A stretch of DNA of 64,000 nt from Candidatus Kaftiobacterium secundum (GCA_031459765.1 JAVKHY010000001.1:468156-532155), one strand, 5' to 3'. Positions 5,105 to 60,016 are shown, counted from the first letter of the stretch. The notes: a model not told the origin generated them from the letters alone. Numbers and translations: made by a program.

Positions 5105-6001
5105 TTACCGCCTGTCCAGGCCGAGGATGCGGCGCGCATTCCCGGCCAGGATGGCCTGCCGGTCGTCGTCGCTCAGTTCGAGCCGCCGGAGAATCGCCAC
5201 CTGCTCCTTGAGGATGTGGCCGCGGTAGCCCCCGTAGGCGGTCGAGTCCGTGCCGAAGAGGATGCGTCCGGGCCCGAAGGCGCGCAGGGCGTCCCTGAAC
5301 ACCTGCTCCAGGGACGGCTGCCCCGGATAGTAGTCGCGCCAGTTGTTGGTCCCGGAGGTGTCCACGCAGACGTTCTCCGTGTGGTAGGCCAGAAACAGCG
5401 TCTCGCGAAAGAAGCCGGCGCCGAAGTGGGCGATGACGAAGGTGACCTCCGGAAACTCCTTCACCGCCGCGGACAGGGGCAGCGGGCTGGCAAAACTCAG
5501 ATCATAGAAGGCGCCGACGGTGATGCCGAAATGGAAGAGGATGGGCAGTGCCGCCTCCGCCGCGGCCTCGTAGACCGGGTACAGCGCCCGGTCGTTGGGC
5601 AGGAACCGCTGGATCGGCGGGTAGAGCTTCAACCCGGACAATCCCATGGAGCGGAACTGGGCCACCGTCCGTCCGGCGTCGGGATGGCGCGGATCGGAGA
5701 GCGAACCCCAGCCGATCAGGCGTTGCGGGTTCATGGCCACGAACCGGGAGAGTTCCTCGTTCCCTTCGCCGACCGCAATGAACGCCCCGGCCTGGACCCC
5801 GGCCGCATCGAAGGCCTGGAGCCAGGAGCGGGCGTGGTCTTCCAGCGACTTCCCTTCCAGCTCGGCCAGACGTTCCTCGAAGGTCTTCCCCCGGACCCTG
5901 GCCGCCTCCATCGCCTTCTTCCGGTACTGCGGAAGGCGCTCGCGCTGGCGCCGGAGCATCGCCGCGGTGATCAGGTGGAGGTGGCTGTCGATGATCGTCA
6001 T
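5105..6001 (-). CDS. amidohydrolase family (TIM-barrel metal-dependent hydrolase)
   Basis: N-terminal IIDSHLHL metal-binding motif; 298 aa; amidohydrolase_2-like. Confidence 0.75.
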   Translation of the reverse strand: MTIIDSHLHLITAAMLRRQRERLPQYRKKAMEAARVRGKTFEERLAELEGKSLEDHARSWLQAFDAAGVQAGAFIAVGEGNEELSRFVAMNPQRLIGWGSLSDPRHPDAGRTVAQFRSMGLSGLKLYPPIQRFLPNDRALYPVYEAAAEAALPILFHFGITVGAFYDLSFASPLPLSAAVKEFPEVTFVIAHFGAGFFRETLFLAYHTENVCVDTSGTNNWRDYYPGQPSLEQVFRDALRAFGPGRILFGTDSTAYGGYRGHILKEQVAILRRLELSDDDRQAILAGNARRILGLDRR

Positions 6002-6118
6002 GGGGCCAGCGTACTGCGGGGTTTCTCAGAGCGTCAATACGAAGTCCCGCAGCGGATGTCGAGCGCTGCTCGTCGGCCCCGGCTTGCCCTGGCACGCCGG
6101 ATGCTCTTTCCTCACAGC

Positions 6119-6559
6119 ATGGGGTCGCGGATGAGACTGGACGGTGTGGAGTGCAGGACGGAGGGGCGGCAGGTCGTGGCCAGGGTCAGGCTCAGCCTGG
6201 ACGACGACGTGCGCACCGGCTCCTCCAGCGCGCCGGCCGTAGGGACCGGATGGCAGCGCGCCGTGGCCGAGGCCACGCTGCAGGCGGTCGCCGCCTTCGT
6301 GGGCGGCGGTGTCGCCTTCACCCTGGACTCCGTCACGGAAATCCGGACCGGGCGTCATCCGCTGATCGTGGTGACGATCGTCGTCCACGACGGGCGTCGC
6401 GAGGTCTTCCTCTCCGGTGCCTCCCGGATCAAGGACCATCCGCCCACGGCGGTGGCGCGCGCCGTCCTCCACGGCCTCAACCGCTGGACGGAGTTCCTGC
6501 ACGAGCGCGACATCACCGCCGATCCCCTCGCCGATCACTCCGGCTCGGCGATTCACTGA
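6119..6559 (+). CDS. hypothetical protein
   Basis: ATG inside the long 5024..6559 frame; 3' end overlaps the QueG 3' end convergently by about 47 nt, so it may be spurious. Confidence 0.3.
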   Translation: MGSRMRLDGVECRTEGRQVVARVRLSLDDDVRTGSSSAPAVGTGWQRAVAEATLQAVAAFVGGGVAFTLDSVTEIRTGRHPLIVVTIVVHDGRREVFLSGASRIKDHPPTAVARAVLHGLNRWTEFLHERDITADPLADHSGSAIH

Positions 6560-7691
6560 CCAGGATCTCCTGCAGGGCCCATTCCACCTCTTCTCGGACG
6601 GCAGGATCCGTTTCGACCGCCCGCCTCCTGAGCAGGGCCTCCATCGCTTCGTTCCCCCCGATCCGGCCGAGGGCCCAGGCCGCGTGCCCGCGCACCATGG
6701 GGTCGTCGTCCTCCAGGGCCCGGCCGAGGGCGGGCAGGGCGCGGGGATCGCGCAGGTTGCCCAGGGCCACGGCGGCGTTGCGGCGCAGCCCCCGGCGCTT
6801 CGCCCGTTTGATCGCGCTGTGGCGGAAGCGCGTCTGATAGGTGGATTCGTCGATGTGCAGCAGTTCCACAAGATCCGGAAACGCCACGTCGCGCCGCGGG
6901 GCGAAGGAGGCATGCAGGCCCCGCGCGACCAGGGCGTTGTGCGGGCAGACGTCCTGGCAGACGTCGCAGCCGAAGACCCATGTCCCCAGGAGCGGCCGCA
7001 GCTCCCGCGGGATCCAGCCCCGCAGTTCGATCGTCAGATACGAGATGCACCGTCGCGCATCGACGACGTAGGGCGCGACGATCGCGCCCGTCGGACACCG
7101 GTCCAGGCAGATCCGGCACTGCCCGCACGATCCTTCCAGCGGCGGGTCCGGCGCCAGGGCCAGGTCGGTGAGGATCTCTCCCAGGAAGACATAGGACCCG
7201 AATCCGGCCTTCGTGATCACCATCGCATTCTTCCCGAACCAGCCCAGCCCGGCCCGCTGGGCCAGCGCCCGGTCCAGCAGGGGTCCGGTGTCCGCGTAGT
7301 ACCGCGCCACGGCGGCGCCTCGATCCCGCAGGAAGGCGGCCAGCGCCCGGAGCTTTTCTTCCATCACCCGGTGGTAGTCGGTGCCCCAGGCGTAGGCCGA
7401 GATCCGGCCGCGCAGCCGGTCGTCGCGGGGAGGCGGTGCGTCCCACCGGTAGGCGAGGCCGACGACCACCGCCGAGCGCGTACCCGGGACGACCTCGGCG
7501 GGAGCCGCGGCCCGCGGCGCGTGTTCCGCCATGTAGCGCATCGTCCCGTGCATGCCCGAAGCGACCCACGCCGCCAGGTGCCGGTCGTGGGGTTCCAGCC
7601 GGTCGGCGGTGGTCACGCCCACCAGGTCGAATCCCAGCCCCCGCGCGTATGCCTTGACCTCCTGCGTCAGCGTCGCCTCCATCGGGTCCAT
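6513..7691 (-). CDS. queG: tRNA epoxyqueuosine(34) reductase QueG with C-terminal HEAT-repeat region
   Basis: two 4Fe-4S motifs CGQCRICLDRCP and CDVCQDVCP; C-terminal HEAT-like repeats (DPMVRGHAAWALGRIG); the 613-aa track ORF was trimmed to the internal start MDPMEATLTQ at 7691. Confidence 0.85.
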   Translation of the reverse strand: MDPMEATLTQEVKAYARGLGFDLVGVTTADRLEPHDRHLAAWVASGMHGTMRYMAEHAPRAAAPAEVVPGTRSAVVVGLAYRWDAPPPRDDRLRGRISAYAWGTDYHRVMEEKLRALAAFLRDRGAAVARYYADTGPLLDRALAQRAGLGWFGKNAMVITKAGFGSYVFLGEILTDLALAPDPPLEGSCGQCRICLDRCPTGAIVAPYVVDARRCISYLTIELRGWIPRELRPLLGTWVFGCDVCQDVCPHNALVARGLHASFAPRRDVAFPDLVELLHIDESTYQTRFRHSAIKRAKRRGLRRNAAVALGNLRDPRALPALGRALEDDDPMVRGHAAWALGRIGGNEAMEALLRRRAVETDPAVREEVEWALQEILVSESPSRSDRRGDRR

Positions 7692-48473: not shown

Positions 48474-50087
48474 ATGCCCGTGCTCCCGGCCGCCGGACCA
48501 CCGGCGGATCTCCTCCCGCCCGGTCCCCGGACGATTCTGGAGCTCCGGGGTGTGCGCAAGGCCTTCGGACCGGTCGTCGCCCTGGCGGCGGCGGATTTTC
48601 AGCTCCGGGAGCGGGAGATCCACGGGCTGCTGGGCGGGAACGGCGCCGGGAAGACCACCCTGATGAACATCCTCTACGGTCTGTACCGGGCCGACGCCGG
48701 TGAGGTCTTCCTGGACGGTCGTCCCATCGAGATCCGTTCTCCTCGCGACGCCCTTCGGCACGGGATCGGCATGGTCCACCAGCACTTCCTGCAGGTCGAG
48801 ACCTTCACCGTGGCCCAGAACATCGCGCTGGGGATGCCCGCAGGGCGCCGGCTGCTCCCCACCCCGGTTGAATCCGAGCGGCGCATCCGGGAGCTGGCCG
48901 CGCGGTTTGGTCTCGAGGTGGATCCCCACGCCCTGGTGGCGGAGCTGCCGGTGGGCGTGCGGCAGCGCGTCGAGATCCTCAAGGCGCTCTACCGCCGGGT
49001 GCGGATCCTGATCCTCGACGAGCCCACCACGAACCTGACACCGCAGGAAGTGGACTCCCTGTTCGCCTCGCTCCAGGCCATGGTCAGAGAGGGGATCAGT
49101 GTCGTCTTCATCACCCACAAGATCCGGGAGGCCCTGGCGGTCTGCCAGCGCATCACCGTGATGCGGTCGGGACGGCGCGTCCTCACCGTGCCGCGGGAGG
49201 AGGCGGCGGAGGAGGCGCTGGTGCGGGCGATGGTGGGGGAGGAGGTCGACCTCGGCCGCAGCGTGCTGTTCTCCGGCGGAGGCGGGAAGCGGCGGCCCTC
49301 CGGAGGACCGGCGGTGCTGCGGGTGGACGGGCTCTCGGTGAGCGCGAAGGGCGGCGTGTCCCTGGTCAGGGACTGCAGCCTCGCCGTGTCTGCCGGGGAG
49401 ATCTTCGGCCTCGCGGGGGTGGCGGGGAACGGACAGCGCGAGCTCGTCGAGGCCCTGGTGGGCGTGCGTCGGGCGGCGGGCGGCCGGGTGTGGATCGGGG
49501 AGGCGGAGGTCACGGACGCCGGCACCGCGGACCGGCTGGCGCTGGGTGTGGCCTACATTCCGGAGGACCGCCTGCACGATGGATTTCTCCCCCGAGGGAC
49601 GGTGGCGCAAAACCTCATCCTGGGCGCGCACCGCCGCCGGCCTTACGCCCGAGGGCCGTGGCTGGACTGGCGGGCCGCCTTCGAGGCGGCGAGGCGGCTG
49701 ATCGAGGAGTACCGCATCCACACTCCGGGCCCCGACACTCCCGCCGTGAATCTCTCCGGGGGAAACATCCAGCGGCTGATGCTGGCCCGAGCCTTCTCTT
49801 TTCCGTGCCGTCTCCTCATTGCCCACAATCCCACCCGCGGATTGGACGTGCCCTCCACGGAGTTCGTCTACCGGAAGTTCCTGGAGTTGCGGGACCGGGG
49901 GGCGGGGACCCTTCTGATCTCCGAGGATCTGGACGAACTCTTCCTCCTCTGCGACCGGATCGCGGTGCTGTACCGGGGCCGGATCGCCGGGGTGCTGGGG
50001 CGGGAAGAGTTCGACCGCTACCGGATCGGGCGGCTGATGGCCGGCGTGGAGGCGGCCGGTGCCGGACCGGCGGGTGCGCGTCCGTGA
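48474..50087 (+). CDS. ABC transporter ATP-binding protein (tandem NBDs)
   Basis: two Walker A (GGNGAGKTT, GVAGNGQRE) and two signature motifs (LPVGVRQRVEILKAL, LSGGNIQRLMLAR). Confidence 0.85.
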   Translation: MPVLPAAGPPADLLPPGPRTILELRGVRKAFGPVVALAAADFQLREREIHGLLGGNGAGKTTLMNILYGLYRADAGEVFLDGRPIEIRSPRDALRHGIGMVHQHFLQVETFTVAQNIALGMPAGRRLLPTPVESERRIRELAARFGLEVDPHALVAELPVGVRQRVEILKALYRRVRILILDEPTTNLTPQEVDSLFASLQAMVREGISVVFITHKIREALAVCQRITVMRSGRRVLTVPREEAAEEALVRAMVGEEVDLGRSVLFSGGGGKRRPSGGPAVLRVDGLSVSAKGGVSLVRDCSLAVSAGEIFGLAGVAGNGQRELVEALVGVRRAAGGRVWIGEAEVTDAGTADRLALGVAYIPEDRLHDGFLPRGTVAQNLILGAHRRRPYARGPWLDWRAAFEAARRLIEEYRIHTPGPDTPAVNLSGGNIQRLMLARAFSFPCRLLIAHNPTRGLDVPSTEFVYRKFLELRDRGAGTLLISEDLDELFLLCDRIAVLYRGRIAGVLGREEFDRYRIGRLMAGVEAAGAGPAGARP

Positions 50088-51136
50088 CCGAACGGGTGCT
50101 TCGCGGTCGGGGTCCGCAGGGATGGCCGGTGCTGGTCGTCGCCGGCGCCGCTCCCTACCTGCTCGGTATCGCGGCGGCCTTCGCGGCGGTAGGTCTCTTC
50201 ATGGCCGTGATGGGGTTTGATGTCGCCAGGGCGTACAGCACGATCCTGTTCACGTCTTTCAGGAGCGCCAACGGCTTCGTCCAGACCCTGTTGAAGTTCA
50301 TCCCGCTGGTGCTGCTGGCGCTGGCCTTCACCGTGCCGCTGGCCGCCTGGAAGTTCAACATCGGGGGAGAGGGGCAACTGATCGCCGGGGCCATCGGCGC
50401 CGCCGCGGCGGGGATCCTCCTGGCCGGCCTGCCGGCGGTCGTCCTGCTGCCGGTGCTGATCCTGGCCGGCGTCCTCTGCGGCGCGTTGTGGGCGCTGGTC
50501 CCGGCCTGGCTCCTCTACCGGTTCGGGATCAACGAAATCCTCACCACGGTGTTGATGAACTTCGTGTCCTTCAGCGCCATGGATTACGTGGCCACGGAGA
50601 TCTGGCCGGATCCGGCGGCCGGGCACCCGACCACGGTCCCCATCGCCGCCGCCGCCCGCCTCCCCCTCCTGGTCGGGAGTCCGCCCCTGCACGCCGGGTT
50701 CCTCATCGCGCTGGCCGCGACCGTCGCCGTCCACCTCTACGTGAACCGCACCACAGCAGGGTACGAGTTGCGGGCCACCGGCGCGAACCTGCGCGCCGCG
50801 CTGCTCCACGGTATCGCCGTGCACCGCATCGCCCTGCTGTCCCTGGTGCTGGGAGGGACTCTGGCCGGACTGGCCGGAGCCGTGGAGGTGGCCGGCGTCC
50901 ACCACCGGCTGATCGAGGGCGTGCAGTCCAACTATCTGTTGCTGAGCATCCTCATCGGTCTGATCGCCAAGGGAAACACCGCGGCCGTACCCCTCGTGGC
51001 CTTCGCCATCGCCGCGCTGGAGGTCGGGGCCCGGGCCATGCAGCGGACGATGATGATCCCGGCGGAGATCGTCTTCGTGGTCGAGGGGGTGATCCTGATC
51101 TTCGTCCTCCTCTCCGACGTCGTGCGCAGGAGGTAA
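50084..51136 (+). CDS. ABC transporter permease (BMP/nucleoside type)
   Basis: GTGA overlap with the ATPase; multi-TM. Confidence 0.8.
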   Translation: MTERVLRGRGPQGWPVLVVAGAAPYLLGIAAAFAAVGLFMAVMGFDVARAYSTILFTSFRSANGFVQTLLKFIPLVLLALAFTVPLAAWKFNIGGEGQLIAGAIGAAAAGILLAGLPAVVLLPVLILAGVLCGALWALVPAWLLYRFGINEILTTVLMNFVSFSAMDYVATEIWPDPAAGHPTTVPIAAAARLPLLVGSPPLHAGFLIALAATVAVHLYVNRTTAGYELRATGANLRAALLHGIAVHRIALLSLVLGGTLAGLAGAVEVAGVHHRLIEGVQSNYLLLSILIGLIAKGNTAAVPLVAFAIAALEVGARAMQRTMMIPAEIVFVVEGVILIFVLLSDVVRRR

Positions 51137-51176
51137 CCTGGTCATCGACGCGTTTGTCACCTTCGCCCGGCTGGTC

Positions 51177-52079
51177 GTGCTCACGCTGGTCCCGTACGTC
51201 CTGGCCGGCCAGGGGACGATGCTGGCCGGGCGGGCCGGGGTGTTCAACGTGGCCCAGGAGGGCATCATGCTGGTCGGCGCCTCGGTGGGCTTCCTGGGCG
51301 CCTATCTCTCGGGGGGGAACCTGCTCGAGGGCCTCCTGCTGGCGGCGGTCGTCGGCGGCCTCTTCGGGCTGGCCCTGGCCTATTTCACGACCACGTTGAA
51401 AATGGACCAGTTCGTGATCGGCCTGGCCCTGTACTTCATCGGCCTGGCGCTGTCCACGCTCTTCTACCGGCTGGCGGTCGGCGTCACCCTCGCCCCTCCG
51501 CTGATCTCCACGCTGCGGGATCTGCCCGTGGCCGGCCTCAGCCGCATCCCGGTGCTGGGCCCGATCCTCTTCCGGCAGAACGTCCTGGTGTACGGCGCCG
51601 TGCTGCTCTCCGCGGCGCTCTCCCTCTTGCTCCGGTCCACCGGGCCCGGGCTGGCCCTGCGGGCCGTCGGGGAGAACCCCATGGCCGCCGACGCCCTCGG
51701 CGTGAATGTGCCGCTGGTGCGTTATCTGACCACCGTGGTCGGGGCCATACTCATCGGGCTGGCCGGCGCCTACCTGCCGATGGTCTACACCGGCACCTTT
51801 ACCGAGGGGATGGTGCGGGGCCGGGGCTGGCTCTCCATCGCCCTGACCTTCTTCGGCGGGTGGAATCCGGCGCTGATCTTCCTGGGGGCCCTGTTCTTCG
51901 CGGGGGTCGAGGTGCTGGCGTTCCGGGTGCAGGTCACGGGCGCGGGGATCCCGTACCAGTTCATCCTCATGCTCCCCTACCTGGCCACCATGGTCGTGAT
52001 GATGCCCGCCTTTCGGCGTCTTCAGGTGCCCGCGTTCCTGGGGAAGAACTACGACCGCGAACGACGGTTGCTGCTGTAG
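51177..52079 (+). CDS. ABC transporter permease (second subunit)
   Basis: multi-TM; true start may be a little upstream (in frame from 51138). Confidence 0.75.
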   Translation: MLTLVPYVLAGQGTMLAGRAGVFNVAQEGIMLVGASVGFLGAYLSGGNLLEGLLLAAVVGGLFGLALAYFTTTLKMDQFVIGLALYFIGLALSTLFYRLAVGVTLAPPLISTLRDLPVAGLSRIPVLGPILFRQNVLVYGAVLLSAALSLLLRSTGPGLALRAVGENPMAADALGVNVPLVRYLTTVVGAILIGLAGAYLPMVYTGTFTEGMVRGRGWLSIALTFFGGWNPALIFLGALFFAGVEVLAFRVQVTGAGIPYQFILMLPYLATMVVMMPAFRRLQVPAFLGKNYDRERRLLL

Positions 52080-52167
52080 CCGAACGGGACGACACGGGAT
52101 CCGAAAGGGATTGGACCCTCGGATCGAGCACTGGTAAACGCGGTTCGCCATCGAGGTCGCCGCCAGA

Positions 52168-54291
52168 GTGGCCCGGGAGCTCGACGACGGCGTGGTCTTC
52201 GTCGATCTCGCGCCGGTCCGTGATCCCGCCCTGGTCTTGGACGCCGTGGCCCGGACGCTGGACCTACCGGATTACCCCGGCCGGCCATCACTGGAGCGCC
52301 TGCGCCGGCACCTGGGTGACCGGAACATCCTGCTCGTGCTCGACAATCTCGAGCACCTCATCTCCGCCGCTCCGGACATTGGTGACGTTCTGGCCGCCTG
52401 CCCGACCGTCAAGGTGCTGGCTACGAGTCGCCAGCCGCTGCACCTCCGCTGGGAGCGTCACTACCCGCTGCTCCCCCTCGGTCTCCCGGAGCCAGGCGCG
52501 GTGCCGGATGCGACGAGACTGCTCCGGTCCCCGGCCACGGCGCTCTTCATTGAGCGGGCTCGCGCGGCCCAGCCGACGTTCACGGTCGACGACCGGAATG
52601 CTCCCGCGATTGTCAAGATCTGCCGCCGGCTGGACGGCCTGCCCCTGGCGATCGAGCTGGCCGCGGCCTGGGTCGGACCGCTGGGGCTGGAGGCGATTCT
52701 GTCCAGGCTGTCCGCCCACCGCGGACTTCCCGCCGGCGGCTCGCCGGACGCGCCCGAGCGCCAGCGCACCCTCATCGACGCCATCGGCTGGAGCTACGAC
52801 CTGCTGAACGACACCGAGCGGATGGTCTTCCGCGCGCTCGGGGCATTTTCCGGCGAGACCCCGCTCGAGGCGATCGAGGCCGTGTGCGAGGGGCTGCGCG
52901 TCGATGCGCTGATGCCTGTTGCCCGGCTCGTCGACAAGAACCTCCTGATCCGCGTCGAAGACGGCGCGCCGCGCTTTCGCATGCTGGAAACCATCCGCGA
53001 GTTCGCGGAGGAACGCCTCGAGCTGACGGGCGAGGCGGAAGCCGTGCGCCGGCGCCACGCGGCGTGGTTCCTCGACCTCGCCCGGCAGGCGGAGCGGTAC
53101 CTGTGGAGCGAGCACCAGGCGGTGTGGTTCGGGCGGATCGAGCAGGCGCACGACAACATCCGCGCCGCCCTGCGGTGGTGCCTTGACGGAGCGGATGAGG
53201 AGACGGGGGTGCTGCTCGCGGCCTCGATGCACCGCTTCTGGTTCTCGCGCGGCCACATCCGCGAGGGCCGTCGGTGGGGTGAGATCGCGGCGTCGAAGCA
53301 GAACGTCTCTGACCGGGCGCGCGCCCTGGCCCTCAGGAACCTGGCATTCTTCCTCGTGCACCAGGGCGAGGCAAGGCAGGCGCTCGGGTTGATGGAGCAG
53401 GCGCTGGCCCTGGCGCGGCGGGTCGGAGAGCCGGCGACGACGGCCTGGGTCCTGCACGGGCTGGCCCTGGCCGCGGCCGGGGCAGGCGATGCCGAACGAT
53501 CCGAACGCGTCAATCTCGAGATGCTGGACGCGGCCCGCCTGGCGGGTGATGAAGCGCTGGCGATCCGGGCGCTCTGCGGGATCGCGAGCGCCCTGCACCG
53601 TCGCGGGCAGACGTCGCGCGCGCGGGAGATCTTCGAGGAAGCCCTGCGCCTGGCCCGGCCGCGCCACGACAAGTGGCTGACCGGTGTGGTGACGGGCGGG
53701 CTGGGCCGGGTGCTCCTGCGAGACGACCCCGCCCAGGCCGTGGTGCTGCTGGAGGAGAGCCTGGCCCTGGCGCACGACGTCGGCCATCGCTGGCTGACGG
53801 CGCTCGGCCTGCAAGACCTGGCCGGTCTTCTGGCCCGCTCCGATCGTGCCGGCATCGCCGCGGCGCTGCTGGGCGCGTCGGAATCGCTGCGGGAGGCTTT
53901 CGGGCTGGTTCCCGGTCCCGGCGTCCAGGCCGCCTTGAGGGAAGCCGGCGAGGCGGCGTGCGAGCGCCTCGGCGATGCCGTCTATGAGGCGGAGGTGGCG
54001 AAGGGGCGGGCGATGACCGTGGACGAAGCGGTCGCCCTGGCGCTCGGGCGAACGCTCCCGCCCGGGAAGACGCGCCCGCAGCGCCCCGGCGGACTGACCG
54101 GTCGTGAAGCGCAGATCGTCCTGGACATCGCCCGCGGCCTCACCAACCGGCAGATCGCGACCAGGCTGGAGATCTCCGAACGCACCGTGGACGCTCACCT
54201 CCAGAACATCCGCAACAAGCTCGGCATGGAGAAGCGCGCCCAGATCGCCGCCTGGGCTTCCGCGCACCTGCCGAAGGGCGCGCGGGCTTAG
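52168..54291 (+). CDS. LuxR-family STAND-type regulator (TPR, C-terminal LuxR HTH), 5'-truncated with disrupted Walker A; possible pseudogene
   Basis: paralog of 56616..58991 but homology begins inside the P-loop (..TRFAIEVAARVARELDDG); 1-nt deletion in GGTAAA(A)CGCGGTTC relative to the GKTRF codons; C-terminal TGREAQIVLDIARGLTNRQIATRLEISERTVDAHLQNIRNKLG. Confidence 0.65.
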   Translation: MARELDDGVVFVDLAPVRDPALVLDAVARTLDLPDYPGRPSLERLRRHLGDRNILLVLDNLEHLISAAPDIGDVLAACPTVKVLATSRQPLHLRWERHYPLLPLGLPEPGAVPDATRLLRSPATALFIERARAAQPTFTVDDRNAPAIVKICRRLDGLPLAIELAAAWVGPLGLEAILSRLSAHRGLPAGGSPDAPERQRTLIDAIGWSYDLLNDTERMVFRALGAFSGETPLEAIEAVCEGLRVDALMPVARLVDKNLLIRVEDGAPRFRMLETIREFAEERLELTGEAEAVRRRHAAWFLDLARQAERYLWSEHQAVWFGRIEQAHDNIRAALRWCLDGADEETGVLLAASMHRFWFSRGHIREGRRWGEIAASKQNVSDRARALALRNLAFFLVHQGEARQALGLMEQALALARRVGEPATTAWVLHGLALAAAGAGDAERSERVNLEMLDAARLAGDEALAIRALCGIASALHRRGQTSRAREIFEEALRLARPRHDKWLTGVVTGGLGRVLLRDDPAQAVVLLEESLALAHDVGHRWLTALGLQDLAGLLARSDRAGIAAALLGASESLREAFGLVPGPGVQAALREAGEAACERLGDAVYEAEVAKGRAMTVDEAVALALGRTLPPGKTRPQRPGGLTGREAQIVLDIARGLTNRQIATRLEISERTVDAHLQNIRNKLGMEKRAQIAAWASAHLPKGARA

Positions 54292-54487
54292 ACTCCGACC
54301 GACTCGCTTTCGCCCACGGCTCTCCCGGTCTTTCCCCTGGTACTTAGGTCCTTCCTCGGATGGCGGCGGTCCAGCCGAAGCGCAAGATAGGTGGACAGCG
54401 AGACATGCGTCCTGGACCGGAGCCCTTGGCTGTGGCGCGGCGCAGGGGAGCCCGGAGCCGGGCGCTTCGCAAAAGGAGGAACTGCCA

Positions 54488-55114
54488 ATGGGAAGGCGTC
54501 TGGTTCTTGCCGCCGCCGTCTTGCTCGCGGGGGCGTTCCTGCTGTCGACGACCGCGGTCGCCCAGCAGACCATCGTGCCCGGATCCCTGGTCGTCAAAGC
54601 GCTCACGGAGAAGAAGGTGACGTCGTTGCCGGTGGGTCGGCCGCGGCTCTACTGGCGGATCGAAACATTTCCCACTCTCGTTCAAGCGCAGGCGGCGGCC
54701 ACCGGACCCTGGGCGCTGGCCGCTGAGGCCTTCGGGAGCGCCTGGCTCTTCAGGCTGGGACCCAAGGGCATGGTTTCTTCAGGTGGGACCCATGCGGCCG
54801 AGGTCGGCCCCCTCCCGCCGGTACGGGCGACGGAGTATCTCCTCCGGATCAATCAAGCCACCGGCGCGCCCGGCAGCATCACCACCGTGCACACTCATCC
54901 GGGAACTGAAGCCTTCTACGTGCTTGCAGGAGAGGGATGCCTGCACACGTCCGGCGGTGTGCTCCGCATCCCGGTCGGTCGGGCCACGGCAGGGGCGGAG
55001 GCGGAAGTCCCCGTCCAGGTCTCAAGTTGCGGCTCGACGGAGTTGCGCCAGTTGATCATGTTTGTGGTGGATGCGAACAGGCCGTTCTCATCTCCGGCCG
55101 TGTTCCACCATTGA
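54488..55114 (+). CDS. secreted cupin domain protein
   Basis: signal peptide; cupin motifs TVHTHPGTEAFYVLAGEG; AAGGAGG RBS. Confidence 0.65.
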   Translation: MGRRLVLAAAVLLAGAFLLSTTAVAQQTIVPGSLVVKALTEKKVTSLPVGRPRLYWRIETFPTLVQAQAAATGPWALAAEAFGSAWLFRLGPKGMVSSGGTHAAEVGPLPPVRATEYLLRINQATGAPGSITTVHTHPGTEAFYVLAGEGCLHTSGGVLRIPVGRATAGAEAEVPVQVSSCGSTELRQLIMFVVDANRPFSSPAVFHH

Positions 55115-55181
55115 GCGGGCCTTTGGAGGAGGGCGGCCGACCGCGTAGACAGTCCCAGCGCCCTGCCGCTATGCTTGCCGC

Positions 55182-56300
55182 ATGACCCTGCGCGTGAGCT
55201 GGCGGCAGGCGCTGGCCTGGCGAATGCGGCGCCACCTGCTGGATCCGGTGGGAACGCTGCCCGTCGCCGGCGTGGTCCGCCGCCTCTGCGCCGTCCAGAC
55301 GCAGGTCGCCTCATCCGCCGAACTCGCCGTCCGCCTCCGACGTGAGCGATCGCGGCCTGGCGAGGTCGCCCGCGCCCTGGCCGAGGGTCGCCTCATCAAG
55401 ACCTGGGCGATGCGCGGGGCGCTCCACCTGCTCACCCCGGAGGACGGCGGCGCCTTCCTCTCGCTGATCGCCGCGGGACGGCGCTGGGAACTCCCCAGCT
55501 GGCAGCGGTACTTCGGCCTGACCCCGCAGGTCATGATCCACTTCCGCGAGGCGGTTCGCGAGGCGCTCGACGGTGCTCCCCTCACACGCGAAGAACTGAT
55601 CGCCGCCCTGGTCCGGCGCCGCCGGCTGCGGCATCTGGGCGAAGGGCTCCGGTCGGGCTGGGGCACGCTCCTCAAGCCCCTGGCCTGGCTTGGAGACCTG
55701 TGCCACGGACCGGCGCGGGGCCCCCGCGTCACCTTCACCCGTCCGGAGGCGGCGAGTCCGCGCTGGGCCAGCCTGCCCGATCCCGATGAGGCCGGGCCGG
55801 TCGCCGTCCGTGCGTACCTTGCGGCATACGGGCCGGCGACGATGGACAACTTCGGCCGCTGGCTTGGCGCCGGAACCGGCAGACGACGGCTGCGGGCGGC
55901 CTTCGCCGCGCTGGGCGACGCGCTGGCCGAGGTCGAGGTGGACGGCGAGCGCGCCTACGTCCTGGCGGAGGACGTCGATGCGCTCGCATCAACAAAGCCT
56001 ACCGCAGCCGTCCGCCTGCTTCCCGGTTTCGATCAGTACGTCCTCGGTCCCGGGACCGACGATGTGCATATCCTGCCGCCCGGGCGGCGCTCCGCCGTGA
56101 GCAGGCAGGCCGGCTGGATTGCGCCGATCGTTGTCGCCAGCGGTGTGGTGTGCGGCACGTGGGAACCGGACGGCGACCACGTGCGCATCGCCTGGTTTCG
56201 GGAAGCGGGCCGGCCGCCCAGGAAAGCGCTGGAGGCGGAGGTTGCCCGCCTCTCCTCGATCCTGGCGCGTGATTTTGGCGCGGTGGTTACACAGGCGTAG
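55182..56300 (+). CDS. winged-helix DNA-binding protein, YcaQ/AlkZ-like (DUF1006) family
   Basis: MTLRVSWRQALAWRMRRHLLDPVG...ELAVRLRRERS... pattern of the YcaQ/AlkZ crosslink-repair glycosylase-like family. Confidence 0.6.
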   Translation: MTLRVSWRQALAWRMRRHLLDPVGTLPVAGVVRRLCAVQTQVASSAELAVRLRRERSRPGEVARALAEGRLIKTWAMRGALHLLTPEDGGAFLSLIAAGRRWELPSWQRYFGLTPQVMIHFREAVREALDGAPLTREELIAALVRRRRLRHLGEGLRSGWGTLLKPLAWLGDLCHGPARGPRVTFTRPEAASPRWASLPDPDEAGPVAVRAYLAAYGPATMDNFGRWLGAGTGRRRLRAAFAALGDALAEVEVDGERAYVLAEDVDALASTKPTAAVRLLPGFDQYVLGPGTDDVHILPPGRRSAVSRQAGWIAPIVVASGVVCGTWEPDGDHVRIAWFREAGRPPRKALEAEVARLSSILARDFGAVVTQA

Positions 56301-56305
56301 CTGAA

Positions 56306-56551
56306 ATGCCAGCCAGGGGGTGGTCCGTGAAGATCGATCGGGTGCGTCGGTTCGCCCTCTCCTTGCCCGAAGCGACGGAAGAGCCGCACTCCGACAAGTC
56401 GTCTTTTCGAGTCAAGGGCAAGATCTTCGCCACTGTGCCTCCAGACGGGCGCCATCTTCACGTGTTCGTGGACGAGGAGCACCAAGACCTCATGGTCTCT
56501 GTGGAGTTGCTGCGTTCAGCGTGGCAACGGAAGGTCCGGATTGGAAAATAG
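56306..56551 (+). CDS. MmcQ/YjbR-family small DNA-binding protein (short form)
   Basis: RRFALSLPEATEEPHSDKSSFRVKGKIFATV pattern. Confidence 0.5.
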   Translation: MPARGWSVKIDRVRRFALSLPEATEEPHSDKSSFRVKGKIFATVPPDGRHLHVFVDEEHQDLMVSVELLRSAWQRKVRIGK

Positions 56552-56615
56552 GCGGAGGAGGCCGGGATTCGCCAGGAACGCGAGTGTCCGAGGCGAATAG
56601 GGTCAGTCACCCGTC

Positions 56616-58991
56616 GTGAAGATCGCGAAGAAGATGGTCCCGTCCAGGGCGCCCGCCGGTTCCTCCTCCGTAGAGAATTCCCGCCGCCGTCCGCCGCCGC
56701 ATCCCCACCGCCTGATCGGGCGGGAGGAGGAACTGGGAGCCGCCCAGGGCCTCATTCTGCGCCGCGACGTCAGGATGCTCACGATTACCGGTCCGCCGGG
56801 GGTCGGGAAGACCCGATTCGCGATCGAGGTCGCATCCGCGGTGGCCAGCGAGTTCGATGACGGCGCCCTGGTTGTGGATCTGGCGCCCATCCGAGACCCG
56901 GCCCTCGTTCTGAGCGCGATCGCCCAGGCCCTGGGCGCGTACGTGCCCCCGAACCAGCCGATCGCGAGGGTCCTGCACGATACCCTGTGCGGGCGGAATC
57001 TGCTCCTTGTGCTGGACAACTTCGAGCAGGTCGCGGCGGCGGGCCCCGAGGTTGCCGGACTCCTGGACGCCGCCCCGGATATCAGGTTCCTCATCACGAG
57101 CCGGGAACCGTTGCATGTCACCTGGGAGCGCGAGTACCGACTGTCTCCGCTGCCGGTCGCCGATCCACGGCTCTCGCAGTGGACAGCGATCAGGCGCAGT
57201 CCTGCCACGGCGCTGTTCGCGGAGCGGGCGAAAGCCGCCGACCCGACGTTCGCCCTGGACGCCGCCAACGCCCGGACGGTTGCGGAGATCTGCCGGAGGC
57301 TGGACGGCCTTCCCCTGGCGATCGAGCTGGCCGCCGCCTGGATCGGCCGTCTGGATCCGGAGGCCATCCTGGCGCGGCTGGAGGCACGGCGCGGCCTGCC
57401 GGCAGAACCGTCCGAAGCGAGGGGCCGACACCGGAACCTCGGCGAGGCGATCGCCTGGAGCTACAACCTCCTGGGTAATGTGGAACGAGCCGTCTTTCGA
57501 CGGGTGGGGATCTTCGCCGGCGGATGTACGGTGGAGGCGATCGAGGCGATCTGCGAGGATCTGAACGTCGGCGTGCTCGAGCCGATCGCCTCGCTCGCCG
57601 ACAAGAACCTGCTCATCCGCATCGAAGACCCCGCCGACGGGCAGCGCGAGCCGAGGGTCCGGATGCTGGAGACAATCCGCGAGTTCGCCCTCCAGGAGCT
57701 GAACCGGGCCGGCGAGACAGATGCGGTGGCCGGGCGCCATGCCCGGTGGTTTCTGGCCCTCGCCGAGCGCGCCGAGCCGCTGTTGTGGAGTCAGGATCAG
57801 ACGGGGTGGCTGGACCGCCTGGACCGCGAGCACGACAACATCCGCGCCGCGCTGCGGTGGTGCTTCAGCGGCCATGGTGATGAGACGGGCGCGCGGCTTG
57901 CCGCGGCAATGGGAAGATTCTGGTTTGCGCGCGGGTACTTCCGGGAGGGACAGGCGTGGTTGGAGGCCGCCGCCTCCAGGCAACAGGTCCCCGCCCGTGC
58001 CCGGGCCCGAGCGCTCGCGGGGCTGGCCGCCTTGCTCTGGCCTCAAGGCAAGGGGGAACGGGCCTCCAGGCTGGCAGAGGAAGCTCTGCTGGTGGCGAGA
58101 TCTGTCGAGGACCCCGCCCTGACCGGGTGGGTGCTGCTGCAGGCGGGCTTGGCGGCGGATTCCATGGGAGATGTGCGGAGCGCCGAGGGCCACCACCGAG
58201 AGTTGATCGCCGTGGCCCACGACGCCCAGGACAGCTGGCTCGAGGCGCGCGGCTCATGCAACCTGGCCATGATCCTGTGGGCTCGGGGCGAAACCGAAGC
58301 CGCGCGGAAATCGGCGGAGAGGGCACTCGTGCTTGCACGCCGCCTGCGGGACAGGTGGTTGACGAGTCTCGTCACCGAAACCCTGGGACGAATACTGCTG
58401 TCCGAGGAACCTGAGAAGGCGCGCGCGCTGCTGGAAGAGAGTCTGGCGCTGTCCAGCGAGATCGGTCACCGCTGGCTCCTGGCCAGCGGCCTGGAGAGTC
58501 TGGCGGCCGTGCTGGTCTGGACCGATCGCGCCGAGCAGGCGGCCCTGTTGATGGGAAGTGCGGAAGAGCTGCGGCGCGCCATCGGGTCGGTGAGAGACGA
58601 CCTCGATCAGGCCGAGATCGCCCGCGCCACGGCAGCCGCCCGTGAACGTCTGGGGAGGACGCGCTTCGAGGCGGCCTGGAATCGAGGCCGGGCCATGACG
58701 GTCGGCGAGGCCGTGGCGTTGGCCCTGGGCAGGCCATCGCCATCTCAGGAGAGGCGAACGCCGCACCCCGGCGGACTCACCGGCCGCGAGACCGAGATCG
58801 CGCGCCACATCGCCGAGGGGCGGACAAACCGTCAAATCGCGATCGCCCTGAGCATCTCCGAGCGGACCGTAGACACGCACGTGCAGAATATTCTGAATCG
58901 CCTGGGCCTGGAACGCCGCGCACAAATCGCCGCCTGGGTTACGGCACACCTGCCCGGCAGCGCCTCCTCCCAGCGAACCCGAACCCAGTAA
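56616..58991 (+). CDS. LuxR-family STAND-type transcriptional regulator (P-loop NTPase, TPR, LuxR HTH), full length
   Basis: Walker A GPPGVGKT; TPR-like repeats; C-terminal TGRETEIARHIAEGRTNRQIAIALSISERTVDTHVQNILNRLG. Confidence 0.85.
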   Translation: MKIAKKMVPSRAPAGSSSVENSRRRPPPHPHRLIGREEELGAAQGLILRRDVRMLTITGPPGVGKTRFAIEVASAVASEFDDGALVVDLAPIRDPALVLSAIAQALGAYVPPNQPIARVLHDTLCGRNLLLVLDNFEQVAAAGPEVAGLLDAAPDIRFLITSREPLHVTWEREYRLSPLPVADPRLSQWTAIRRSPATALFAERAKAADPTFALDAANARTVAEICRRLDGLPLAIELAAAWIGRLDPEAILARLEARRGLPAEPSEARGRHRNLGEAIAWSYNLLGNVERAVFRRVGIFAGGCTVEAIEAICEDLNVGVLEPIASLADKNLLIRIEDPADGQREPRVRMLETIREFALQELNRAGETDAVAGRHARWFLALAERAEPLLWSQDQTGWLDRLDREHDNIRAALRWCFSGHGDETGARLAAAMGRFWFARGYFREGQAWLEAAASRQQVPARARARALAGLAALLWPQGKGERASRLAEEALLVARSVEDPALTGWVLLQAGLAADSMGDVRSAEGHHRELIAVAHDAQDSWLEARGSCNLAMILWARGETEAARKSAERALVLARRLRDRWLTSLVTETLGRILLSEEPEKARALLEESLALSSEIGHRWLLASGLESLAAVLVWTDRAEQAALLMGSAEELRRAIGSVRDDLDQAEIARATAAARERLGRTRFEAAWNRGRAMTVGEAVALALGRPSPSQERRTPHPGGLTGRETEIARHIAEGRTNRQIAIALSISERTVDTHVQNILNRLGLERRAQIAAWVTAHLPGSASSQRTRTQ

Positions 58992-59125
58992 TCCTCGCAA
59001 TTTCCCGATAGAAGCGCGCTCCTACGCCTTTTCCCGGATGCCCGAGCAGCCGGCGGTGGCTAGAGTAGGGGCATCACAACGCCGCGGGCGCACCGTGCCC
59101 ACAGGCCGAGGAGGAGGAACTGATA

Positions 59126-59647
59126 ATGGCCAGAGCGATCGCTGTGATCGCCGCAGTGCTACTTGGGGGTGCCGCAACGGCAGTTACGCCCCGGGAATCC
59201 ATGGGGATGCCCATCAGAGACGAAGCTGCAGCAACGGTCACGGCCCAGGAAGCCATGATTGTCTTCACCCCCGGGCAGTTGAAGTGGCAGGCCGCACCGC
59301 CCTCGTTGCCGCCCGGTGCCCAGATCGTCATCCTGGAAGGTAACCCGGCGCAGGCGGTGCCCCTGACCATGCGGTTGAAGTTCCCGGCCGGATACGCGAT
59401 CCCGCCCCACACCCACCCCGCGCTTGAGCACGTCACCGTGCTGTCCGGGCGGTTCGCTATCGCCATGGGGGACGTGCTCGACAAATCGAAGGGGACAGCC
59501 TACGGCCCTGGGAGTTTCTTCGTGATCGCGCCGGGGATGCGCCACTACGCCTGGACGACGGCTGAAACCATCATCCAGCTGCACAGCGTCGGTCCCTGGG
59601 GCATCACCTACGTCAACCCCGCGGACGATCCGCGGAACAGCCGGTAA
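59126..59647 (+). CDS. secreted cupin domain protein
   Basis: signal peptide; cupin motifs IPPHTHPALEHVTVLSGRF...GPGSFFVIAPGMRHYA; GAGGAGGAA RBS. Confidence 0.7.
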   Translation: MARAIAVIAAVLLGGAATAVTPRESMGMPIRDEAAATVTAQEAMIVFTPGQLKWQAAPPSLPPGAQIVILEGNPAQAVPLTMRLKFPAGYAIPPHTHPALEHVTVLSGRFAIAMGDVLDKSKGTAYGPGSFFVIAPGMRHYAWTTAETIIQLHSVGPWGITYVNPADDPRNSR

Positions 59648-59734
59648 CGCGCTGATCCACGTCGCGGTCAGGTCGTGGTCGGGGAGGGTTGCCTCCCGGG
59701 CCGCGACCTGGCCCGACTCCCCTGGAGGTGTGTC

Positions 59735-59995
59735 ATGACCGTGGATGTGACGACAGAGATCAAGACCAAGGCCCGAGCCGTTTGGGCCAAGGGGGCGTAC
59801 GGCGAGAGCGCGCGGAACCTGGTGGAGGTGTCCGCGCACCTGGTTCGGGCGGCAGGGGTAGGCGCGGGGGACCGCGTCCTCGACGTGGCCACCGGGACCG
59901 GCATCACGGCGATTACGGCCCGCCGGACCGGAGCCTACCTGGCTCCGGTTAAGTCCGCCGGAGTTGATACGGCGATCACGATCAGACGCGGGTAA
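59735..59995 (+). pseudogene. class I SAM-dependent methyltransferase N-terminal fragment
   Basis: AKGAYGESARNLVEV...RVLDVATGTGITAITAARRTGA then loss of homology and early stop. Confidence 0.35.
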
Positions 59996-60016
59996 GCTGA
60001 CCGGATCCGGAACGAG

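Follow-up and report, generated by a model that had tools for sequence, protein, structure and literature searches.

Two neighbouring STAND regulator and exported cupin gene pairs, with a conserved candidate operator, in an Armatimonadota genome

Introduction

The activation scheme described for STAND regulators involves inducer-driven exchange of ADP for ATP and oligomerisation (PMC4381067). Among bacterial cupins, MncA and CucA of Synechocystis are periplasmic proteins exported by the Tat and Sec pathways, respectively (PMC4192464). Here we analyse a locus in which the two kinds of protein meet: in a 64,000-nucleotide stretch of DNA (the window) from Candidatus Kaftiobacterium secundum (GCA_031459765.1, JAVKHY010000001.1:468156-532155), two STAND regulator genes are each followed by a gene for a predicted exported cupin. 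We know of no dedicated STAND regulator for MncA or CucA, and our literature search found no paper describing the pairing of a STAND regulator with an exported cupin.

An earlier note on this DNA had read positions 52168-59647 as a tandemly duplicated module of a LuxR-type STAND regulator and a secreted cupin. In bacteria, regulators by default lie next to their targets, and we find that the region has this ordinary regulator-plus-target layout and is not a recent duplication. Probably, it holds two independent regulator-target cassettes side by side, in which the regulators would activate the adjacent cupin promoters in the manner of MalT.

Results

Two paralogous regulators precede two unrelated cupins

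The window, matched to contig JAVKHT010000006.1 of GCA_031459865.1, is labelled as an Armatimonadota metagenome-assembled genome (MAG), has a G+C content of about 70%, and all mapped genes (51177-59995) lie on its + strand. Coordinates are those of the window except where a homologous locus retrieved from another genome (L002 and so on) is named. Two regulator open reading frames are present, sharing 54% protein identity over about 707 residues: regulator 1 (52168-54291, 707 residues, starting at GTG 52168), an N-terminally truncated STAND protein, and regulator 2 (56616-58991 from a GTG, 791 residues, or 56634-58991 from an ATG, 785 residues), an intact one. Cupin 1 (54488-55114, 208 residues, ATG 54488) follows the first after 196 nt and cupin 2 (59126-59647, 173 residues, ATG 59126) the second after 134 nt, in agreement with the 130-200 nt given in the earlier note. 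Each cupin gene also has the strong ribosome-binding site of its own that had been claimed for it (Shine-Dalgarno sequences AAGGAGG and GGAGGAGG), and both cupin N-termini are hydrophobic and signal-like, ending in AVA or ATA.

The proposed duplication fared differently. The 35-mer on which it had leaned does occur twice, exactly at 52630-52664 and with one mismatch at 57300-57334 (0 occurrences expected, and no shuffle gave it); in a genome of 70% G+C, it merely encodes LDGLPLAIELAA, a conserved stretch known as GLPL in ATPases of the NB-ARC type. The "long stretches of near-identical DNA" were overstated, DNA identity between the regulators being 66-73%. BLASTN similarity is confined to 52138-54272 versus 56811-58954 and ends with the regulator genes; the spacers and cupin genes of the two cassettes gave no BLASTN match to each other. 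The cupins align by BLASTP at 29% over 82 residues (E = 0.006), only around the HxH motif, and they differ in length, in metal motifs and in Pfam family, cupin 1 being a sub-threshold Cupin_2 match and cupin 2 a Cupin_7 protein. Judged from their sequences, they come from unrelated subfamilies of the cupin superfamily, an outcome that the earlier note had itself named as refuting a duplicated module.

A neighbour-joining tree built from 436 shared columns places the regulator-2 lineage as sister to the entire clade of cupin-1-linked regulators, with the regulators of L163 and L082 far outside (39% identity). Because that clade spans phyla, the split between the regulators must be ancient, and on this phylogenetic evidence they are ancient paralogues rather than recent duplicates. 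A recent tandem duplication of a whole regulator-plus-cupin module, followed by divergence, could appeal to the paralogy and collinearity of the regulators (repeat spacing of about 4670-4680 nt), to the layout of CGGATG, a 17-nt spacer and a -10-like element common to both intergenic regions, and to the two tandem cassettes of the relative L170. We nevertheless consider it very improbable: the regulators are the sole homologous part of the supposed segment, regulator 1 is nearer to its orthologues from other phyla (64-81% identity) than to regulator 2, and the regulator-2/cupin-2 unit stands alone at another locus in sister genomes. What remains of the earlier proposal is a regulator-cupin pairing that recurs in other genomes, not a module duplicated in tandem.

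L170 (1484-8314) comes from an Armatimonadota MAG and carries two tandem STAND-LuxR regulators with different cargo: RegA is followed by genes for a 163-residue exported protein and a 138-residue Cupin_2 protein, RegB by a cupin-1 homologue. In the above tree, L170A falls inside the cupin-1-linked clade although its cargo differs; regulators and cargo have therefore been re-assorted.

Domain architecture of the regulators

Both regulators have a Walker B motif (LLVLDN) together with the GLPL motif, and both match the Pfam models TPR_12 (tetratricopeptide repeats, TPR; E = 1e-16 and 7e-11) and GerE (helix-turn-helix, HTH; E = 9e-16 and 2.5e-15). The description of both as P-loop/TPR/LuxR proteins is correct for regulator 2, which has a Walker A motif (GPPGVGKT, 56790-56813) and matches Pfam AAA_22 and NB-ARC, and fails for regulator 1, where no Walker A was found in any frame. 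The nearest sequence matches of regulator 2 in the PDB are DevR/NarL/GerE for the HTH and LGN/Pins-type repeats for the TPRs. No transmembrane segment was found in either regulator.

Against the MalT/LAL models, AAA_16 gave 22.7 bits (cut-off 32.6) and TPR_MalT 22.7 bits (cut-off 45), while the NCBIfam MalT model matched through the HTH only and scored 22-30 bits (cut-off 537). A reading of these STAND proteins as defence systems (Avs and the like) was also considered and dropped, PADLOC having returned generic HTH and TPR hits only.

The regulator-1/cupin-1 pair is conserved across phyla

Cupin 1 has more than 3400 database relatives; scanning species-representative genomes turned up 454, of which the best 80 loci were retrieved. 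A full-length regulator-1 orthologue was present at eight of these 80 (L002, L003, L004, L007, L008, L009 from Meiothermus, L011 from Calidithermus roseus, and L017), which come from Armatimonadota-like MAGs, Anaerolineales, Meiothermus and Calidithermus. These orthologues are 54-57% identical to regulator 2, as against the 64-81% to regulator 1 given above. At seven of the eight loci the regulator gene is co-directional with the cupin gene and lies about 100-170 nt upstream of it. L007 has two cupin-1 copies in tandem (5186-6600), with the regulator gene ahead of the first; the -10-proximal part of the promoter block described below is repeated in front of the second. By this comparison, regulator 1 and cupin 1 form an old cassette.

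Beyond these eight loci, 43 of the 80, mostly from Proteobacteria (among L012-L081), have a neighbour from one cluster of regulators of about 570 residues with a Trans_reg_C-type winged HTH (wHTH), mostly divergent from the cupin gene and about 100-250 nt away. The member that we examined (L050, 4113-5834, 573 residues) has an OmpR-type wHTH, one transmembrane segment and a TPR region beyond it, and so resembles ToxR/CadC. At L025 (Rokubacteria) and L079 (Methylomirabilota) the neighbour belongs to the same cluster and has 937-938 residues; L025, when examined, proved to be a wHTH-AAA_16-TPR protein. In all, a regulator gene adjoins the cupin gene at 51 of the best 80 cupin-1 loci, the examined regulators all being TPR-bearing with three architectures, and no other neighbour was conserved among these loci.

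This recurrence raises the possibility that the cupin takes part in signalling together with the TPR regulator, as its partner or co-sensor, for instance by binding or producing its ligand or by docking onto the TPRs. The association of cupin-1 genes with TPR regulators of three architectures (NB-ARC-TPR-LuxR at eight loci, wHTH-type at 43 of 80, wHTH-AAA16-TPR at L025 and L079), with no other constant partner, would fit such a role, and ToxR-like regulators with periplasmic beta-barrel partners are an established principle (PMC9214523). However, since the STAND regulators have no transmembrane segment and the cupins are exported, the mature proteins would reside in different compartments. In addition, most of the proteobacterial pairs are divergently transcribed, an arrangement typical of regulators and their targets, and in this they differ from the co-transcribed ToxRS or VtrAC. 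We therefore regard a co-sensor role as improbable and return to the cupin as a regulated target.

A conserved cis block lies upstream of cupin 1

Alignment of 9-12 loci from several phyla revealed a conserved block at 54339-54391, between regulator 1 and cupin 1. It begins with a near-palindrome (GGTACTTAGGTCC; GGTACTTAGGT at 54339-54349) whose core, ACTTAGGT, occupies 54342-54349. After a 7-nt spacer comes a second box, CGGATGGC (54357-54364), overlapping the -35-like hexamer ATGGCG (54360-54365), and then, after a spacer of about 17 nt, a -10-like hexamer, CAAGAT (cAAGAT in the alignment; 54383-54388). The block, of about 50 bp, is common to nine STAND-linked loci, to L005 and to both L170 cassettes, with 16 invariant columns in the 12 sequences. 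Its core, AC[CT]TA[AG]GT, is palindromic or nearly so, reading ACCTAGGT in L002 and L170B, ACTTAAGT in L009 and L011, and ACGTACGT in L170A. The promoter of L170 RegA shows the same layout with a variant palindrome, TACGTACGTA.

The 8-mer AC[CT]TA[AG]GT occurs 19 times in the 1.39 Mb of fetched loci plus the window. Fifteen of the 19 occurrences lie just upstream of a cupin-1-type gene, at loci that include five copies of the window's own. STAND-linked loci account for 13, with the box duplicated at one of them, and one more is at L005. The chance expectation, estimated from base composition, is about 0.003 per 150-nt spacer. If ATGGCG and CAAGAT serve as -35 and -10 elements with a 17-nt spacer, the centre of the palindrome would lie near -50.

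Lineages whose boxes are variant also vary at the start of the HTH recognition helix (SE to SQ or RQ, NIRN to NILN), in a sample too small to count as evidence. An RNA element in the spacers was sought and rejected, with no Rfam match at E <= 1 and no consensus structure in the conserved block. A scan for consensus promoters and terminators returned nothing in the regulator-cupin spacers; its sole sigma-70 match in 52000-60000 is at 55146-55175 (TAGACA, 18 nt, TATGCT), just 5' of the alkZ-like gene.

The regulator-2/cupin-2 pair recurs in sister genomes

The sister MAGs L168 and L169 have a regulator-2 orthologue (77-81% identical) followed by a cupin-2 orthologue in a different genomic context, with 81.5% DNA identity over window positions 57374-59800, the intergenic region included. 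The regulator-2/cupin-2 cassette is intact in the window and recurs as a unit in these sister genomes; with the eight genomes carrying the other pair, this answers the earlier note's suggestion to look elsewhere for a conserved regulator-cupin pairing. In L168 (4053-5870) and L169 (2685-4502) the regulator-2 orthologue is itself an in-frame chimera: 68 residues from an ABC-transporter ATPase, which bring a Walker A with them, join the regulator-2 sequence at about residue 255. Genes for a P-type ATPase, MerR and CopD next to the unit in L168 prompted us to consider a link to metal homeostasis; the window shows no synteny with that region, and the link is kept as a lead only.

Upstream of cupin 2, a promoter-like block (59035-59066) has the same layout as that of cupin 1 and is nearly identical in L168. 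It comprises CGGATG (59035-59040), a -35-like ATGCCC (59038-59043), a 17-nt spacer and TAGAGT (59061-59066).

Cupin 2 has more than 5700 database relatives, for which 80 metagenome loci were surveyed. An NB-ARC-LuxR regulator lies upstream of the cupin-2-type gene at one of these 80, L082, which is the closest; across the family as a whole, genes for LysR regulators and for an S-adenosylmethionine (SAM)-dependent methyltransferase are the neighbours seen most often. Close relatives of cupin 2 have an NB-ARC/GerE regulator 108 nt upstream in L163, a BTAD-AAA_16-TPR regulator 33 nt upstream in L164 and a LAL-type regulator downstream in L162.

Both cupins have a complete metal motif 1

Cupin 1 has a signal-like N-terminus (MGRRLVLAAAVLLAGAFLLSTTAVA, followed by QQ), an N-terminal beta domain and then a C-terminal cupin barrel, its family having a length of about 205 residues. 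Cupin 2 is an exported metallocupin of the Cupin_7 type (Pfam E = 1.5e-8), with a sub-threshold match to DUF4437 (E = 0.0014). Motif 1, with the pattern G(X)5HXH(X)3-4E(X)6G, is complete in both and invariant in the family alignments: G129...H135-x-H137...E141...G148 in cupin 1 and G89...H95-x-H97...E101...G108 in cupin 2. With regard to motif 2 (G(X)5PXG(X)2H(X)3N), cupin 2 has an invariant H140, so that both its motifs are complete (HxH...E...H); in cupin 1 the P-x-G is present and the His is absent, and some homologues have GH[GS]AD a few residues later. Cupin 1 also has two near-invariant cysteines, C151 and C181, which could form a disulfide, fitting a periplasmic location.

AlphaFold2 models of cupins 1 and 2 reached a pLDDT (predicted local distance difference test) of 83.7 and 85.0, and Foldseek matched many cupin structures at a probability of 1.0, including TM1459, DddK, germin and KdgF, in keeping with the small jelly-roll beta-barrel of the superfamily. 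The attempt to read a specific function from structure was abandoned: these matches are generic, and neither a solved relative close in sequence nor an NCBIfam family was found.

Regulator 1 has lost its Walker A motif

The homology of regulator 1 starts at regulator-2 residue 66, the T of GPPGVGKT, which corresponds to position 52138, right after an in-frame TAA (52135-52137) and 58 nt from the stop codon of the preceding ABC permease gene. About 75 N-terminal codons, including the Walker A, have thus been lost from regulator 1 in this species. Its orthologues have 771-801 residues with the P-loop present; the closest, in L002, has 791 residues, is 81% identical and reads LVTVTGPPGVGKTRFAIEV. 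In the truncation junction (52080-52167), defined by alignment to regulator 2 and L002, GGTAA-ACG aligns with GGCAAGACG of L002 (the G-K-T codons), placing an in-frame stop and a 1-nt gap exactly there; in the longer DNA alignment, GGCAAGACGCGGTTC of L002 faces GGTAA-ACGCGGTTC in the window. Upstream of the junction, no convincing similarity to L002 DNA was found. Rescue of the P-loop by a frameshift was discarded, the upstream frame (...WTLGSSTGK) being one residue short of a Walker A with no further N-terminal homology.

The junction is not an assembly artefact, because it is 100% identical in three other assemblies, the MAGs GCA_031459255.1 and GCA_031459045.1 and the Logan assembly of SRR27730044; the exact 707-residue product was found on 11 contigs. 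Since the Walker A is absent, the canonical ATP switch cannot operate in regulator 1, which is either a remnant without activity or a short form that works without nucleotide. Four other family members, P0305, P0314, P0318 and P0319, have 683-719 residues and start at or after the P-loop, through truncation or as an effect of gene calling; P0319 and P0305 lie inside their contigs, and a cupin-1 homologue follows P0319.

These observations bring in a second explanation, namely that the region is a zone of gene decay, in which regulator 1 is dead and cupin 1 is either silent or under the control of regulator 2 or a further paralogue. The losses at the G-K-T codons would fit, as would a shortened YjbR gene, a fragmentary methyltransferase gene 3' of cupin 2, the reduction of the alkZ and regulator-2 genes to fused remnants in L002 and the chimeric regulator-2 orthologues of L168 and L169; the similarity of the HTH regions of the two regulators would allow for cross-control. 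However, the 707 remaining codons are intact, a GAGG (52153-52156) lies 10 nt before GTG 52168 as a possible ribosome-binding site, and the cupin-1 gene, its promoter block and its ribosome-binding site are fully conserved. The ratio of nonsynonymous to synonymous substitution rates between regulator 1 and its L002 orthologue is 0.22, with 40 versus 37 amino-acid changes on the two branches, symmetrical and without acceleration. The truncation could also simply be recent. Positions 50000-59500 are 100% identical among the MAGs compared, all differences lying beyond 59501, and this identity across regulator 1 means that recent truncation and continuing selection cannot be separated: regulator 1 was either recently truncated or is still under selection. 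Taken together, we rate decay as the less likely explanation, although a serious one, and retain that of two regulator-target cassettes.

Neighbouring genes

Upstream of regulator 1, an open reading frame matching Pfam BPD_transp_2 (51177-52079) encodes the last permease of a Bmp-type ABC transporter and abuts the truncation junction. As the earlier note had described, two genes sit between the cassettes: an AlkZ/YcaQ-like gene (55182-56300; PF06224, E = 3.3e-50), which belongs to neither, and a short YjbR/MmcQ-like gene (56306-56551, 81 residues) that matches positions 1-49 only of the 88-position profile. The C-terminal residues of the latter, ELLRSAWQRK, resemble the usual YjbR C-terminus, suggesting an internal deletion. 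Downstream of cupin 2, the SAM-dependent methyltransferase gene (59675-59995), of a kind that is a frequent neighbour of cupin-2-type genes elsewhere, is an N-terminal fragment of about 70 residues cut just after motif I (VLDVATGTG); full-length versions occur near cupin-2-type genes at 11 loci. In L002 (5791-6052), the initial 22 codons of alkZ come after cupin 1, fused to a 127-nt regulator-2 fragment (86% identical to 57023-57149), and a tRNA-Ala(CGC) gene comes next, most of the alkZ-yjbR-regulator-2 stretch having been deleted.

Discussion

Each of the two cassettes consists of a cytoplasmic STAND factor, a putative intergenic promoter and a monocistronic gene for a small cupin with a predicted Sec-type signal. 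The domain architecture, the conserved adjacency and the conserved cis block are established here, and the mechanism is proposed by analogy with MalT. The likeliest reading, we infer, is that each regulator activates the promoter of the adjacent cupin gene. A ligand would bind the TPR sensor; the nucleotide-binding oligomerisation domain (NOD) would then open, exchange ADP for ATP and allow the regulator to oligomerise. An HTH dimer would bind the palindromic box GGTACTTAGGTAC, centred about 50 bp 5' of the predicted start site and beside a weak -35, recruiting RNA polymerase for transcription of the cupin gene. The cupin would be exported and metallated in the periplasm, where it may bind or convert a small molecule. 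Regulator 1, having no P-loop, may be inactive, leaving cupin 1 silent or cross-controlled, or it may act without nucleotide.

Several observations weigh against this mechanism. The evidence that a cupin is regulated by its neighbour consists of conserved adjacency and a cis element, and the consensus promoter scan called neither cupin promoter. The loss of the Walker A excludes the canonical ATP switch for regulator 1. The cupin-2 promoter of the window lacks the TAGGTAC palindrome box seen in L082, L163 and L162, and the wider cupin-2 family is mostly not adjacent to STAND regulators. Lastly, L005, from a Bacillota MAG, has the full promoter and palindrome block (5851-5921) and no STAND-LuxR regulator within 6 kb, implying a regulator that acts in trans or has been lost.

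More tentatively, and with less confidence than we place in the two cassettes themselves, an exported cupin and a one-component TPR regulator may constitute a widespread two-gene response module. Such a module could serve to detect periplasmic stress, chemical or metal, and to respond to it; where the regulator is anchored in the membrane, as in Proteobacteria, the cupin might itself act back on the TPR sensor in the periplasm. The recurrent truncations and chimeras of STAND genes, in the window and in L168/L169, could represent functional, nucleotide-independent short forms or debris.

The locus changes no concept; a conserved cross-phylum cassette with a candidate operator nevertheless provides useful leads. 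If activation of the adjacent cupin is correct, it would offer a testable regulator-operator-target triple for a large STAND/LuxR family, whose top hits by themselves make up about 75 clusters at 90% identity, and would open a first route to the function of two very large exported-cupin families. Simple reporter or electrophoretic mobility shift assays are made possible in cultured Deinococcota by the conservation of the palindrome and promoter.

Among described cupins, MncA and CucA are, like cupins 1 and 2, small exported bacterial proteins with a His/Glu metal site, and MncA differs from both in being a bicupin; neither MncA nor CucA was among the PDB sequence matches of our cupins at E <= 1. 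Cupin 2 matches the cupin domain of ChrR-type anti-sigma factors (Cupin_7) and, below threshold, DUF4437; its N-terminus is a signal peptide, that of ChrR a zinc anti-sigma domain. The ChrR model TIGR02451 scored 19 bits against a cut-off of 124.5, and no ECF sigma factor gene was found nearby.

The proteobacterial cupin-1 loci recall ToxR/ToxS, in that a membrane-anchored wHTH regulator is encoded beside a periplasmic beta-barrel protein, here the cupin (PMC9214523). They differ in being divergent rather than in an operon and in the large periplasmic TPR domain of the regulator, and the regulators of the window differ further in being cytoplasmic.

The closest parallel for the window's regulators is with MalT and its kind. 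Compared with MalT (about 900-1100 residues), regulator 2 is smaller, at 785-791 residues; its NOD scores as NB-ARC/AAA_22 and not as the MalT-type AAA_16, TPR_MalT stays below threshold, and regulator 1 has no Walker A altogether. What is shared with MalT, LAL, AfsR and GutR is the one-component design, with a P-loop NOD, a sensor made of helical repeats (TPR) and an effector domain that binds DNA, which in MalT and the LALs is of the LuxR type. Presumed inducer-driven ADP/ATP exchange with oligomerisation (PMC4381067), and a target promoter with a weak -35 beside the presumed binding box, would complete the likeness to MalT-type systems.

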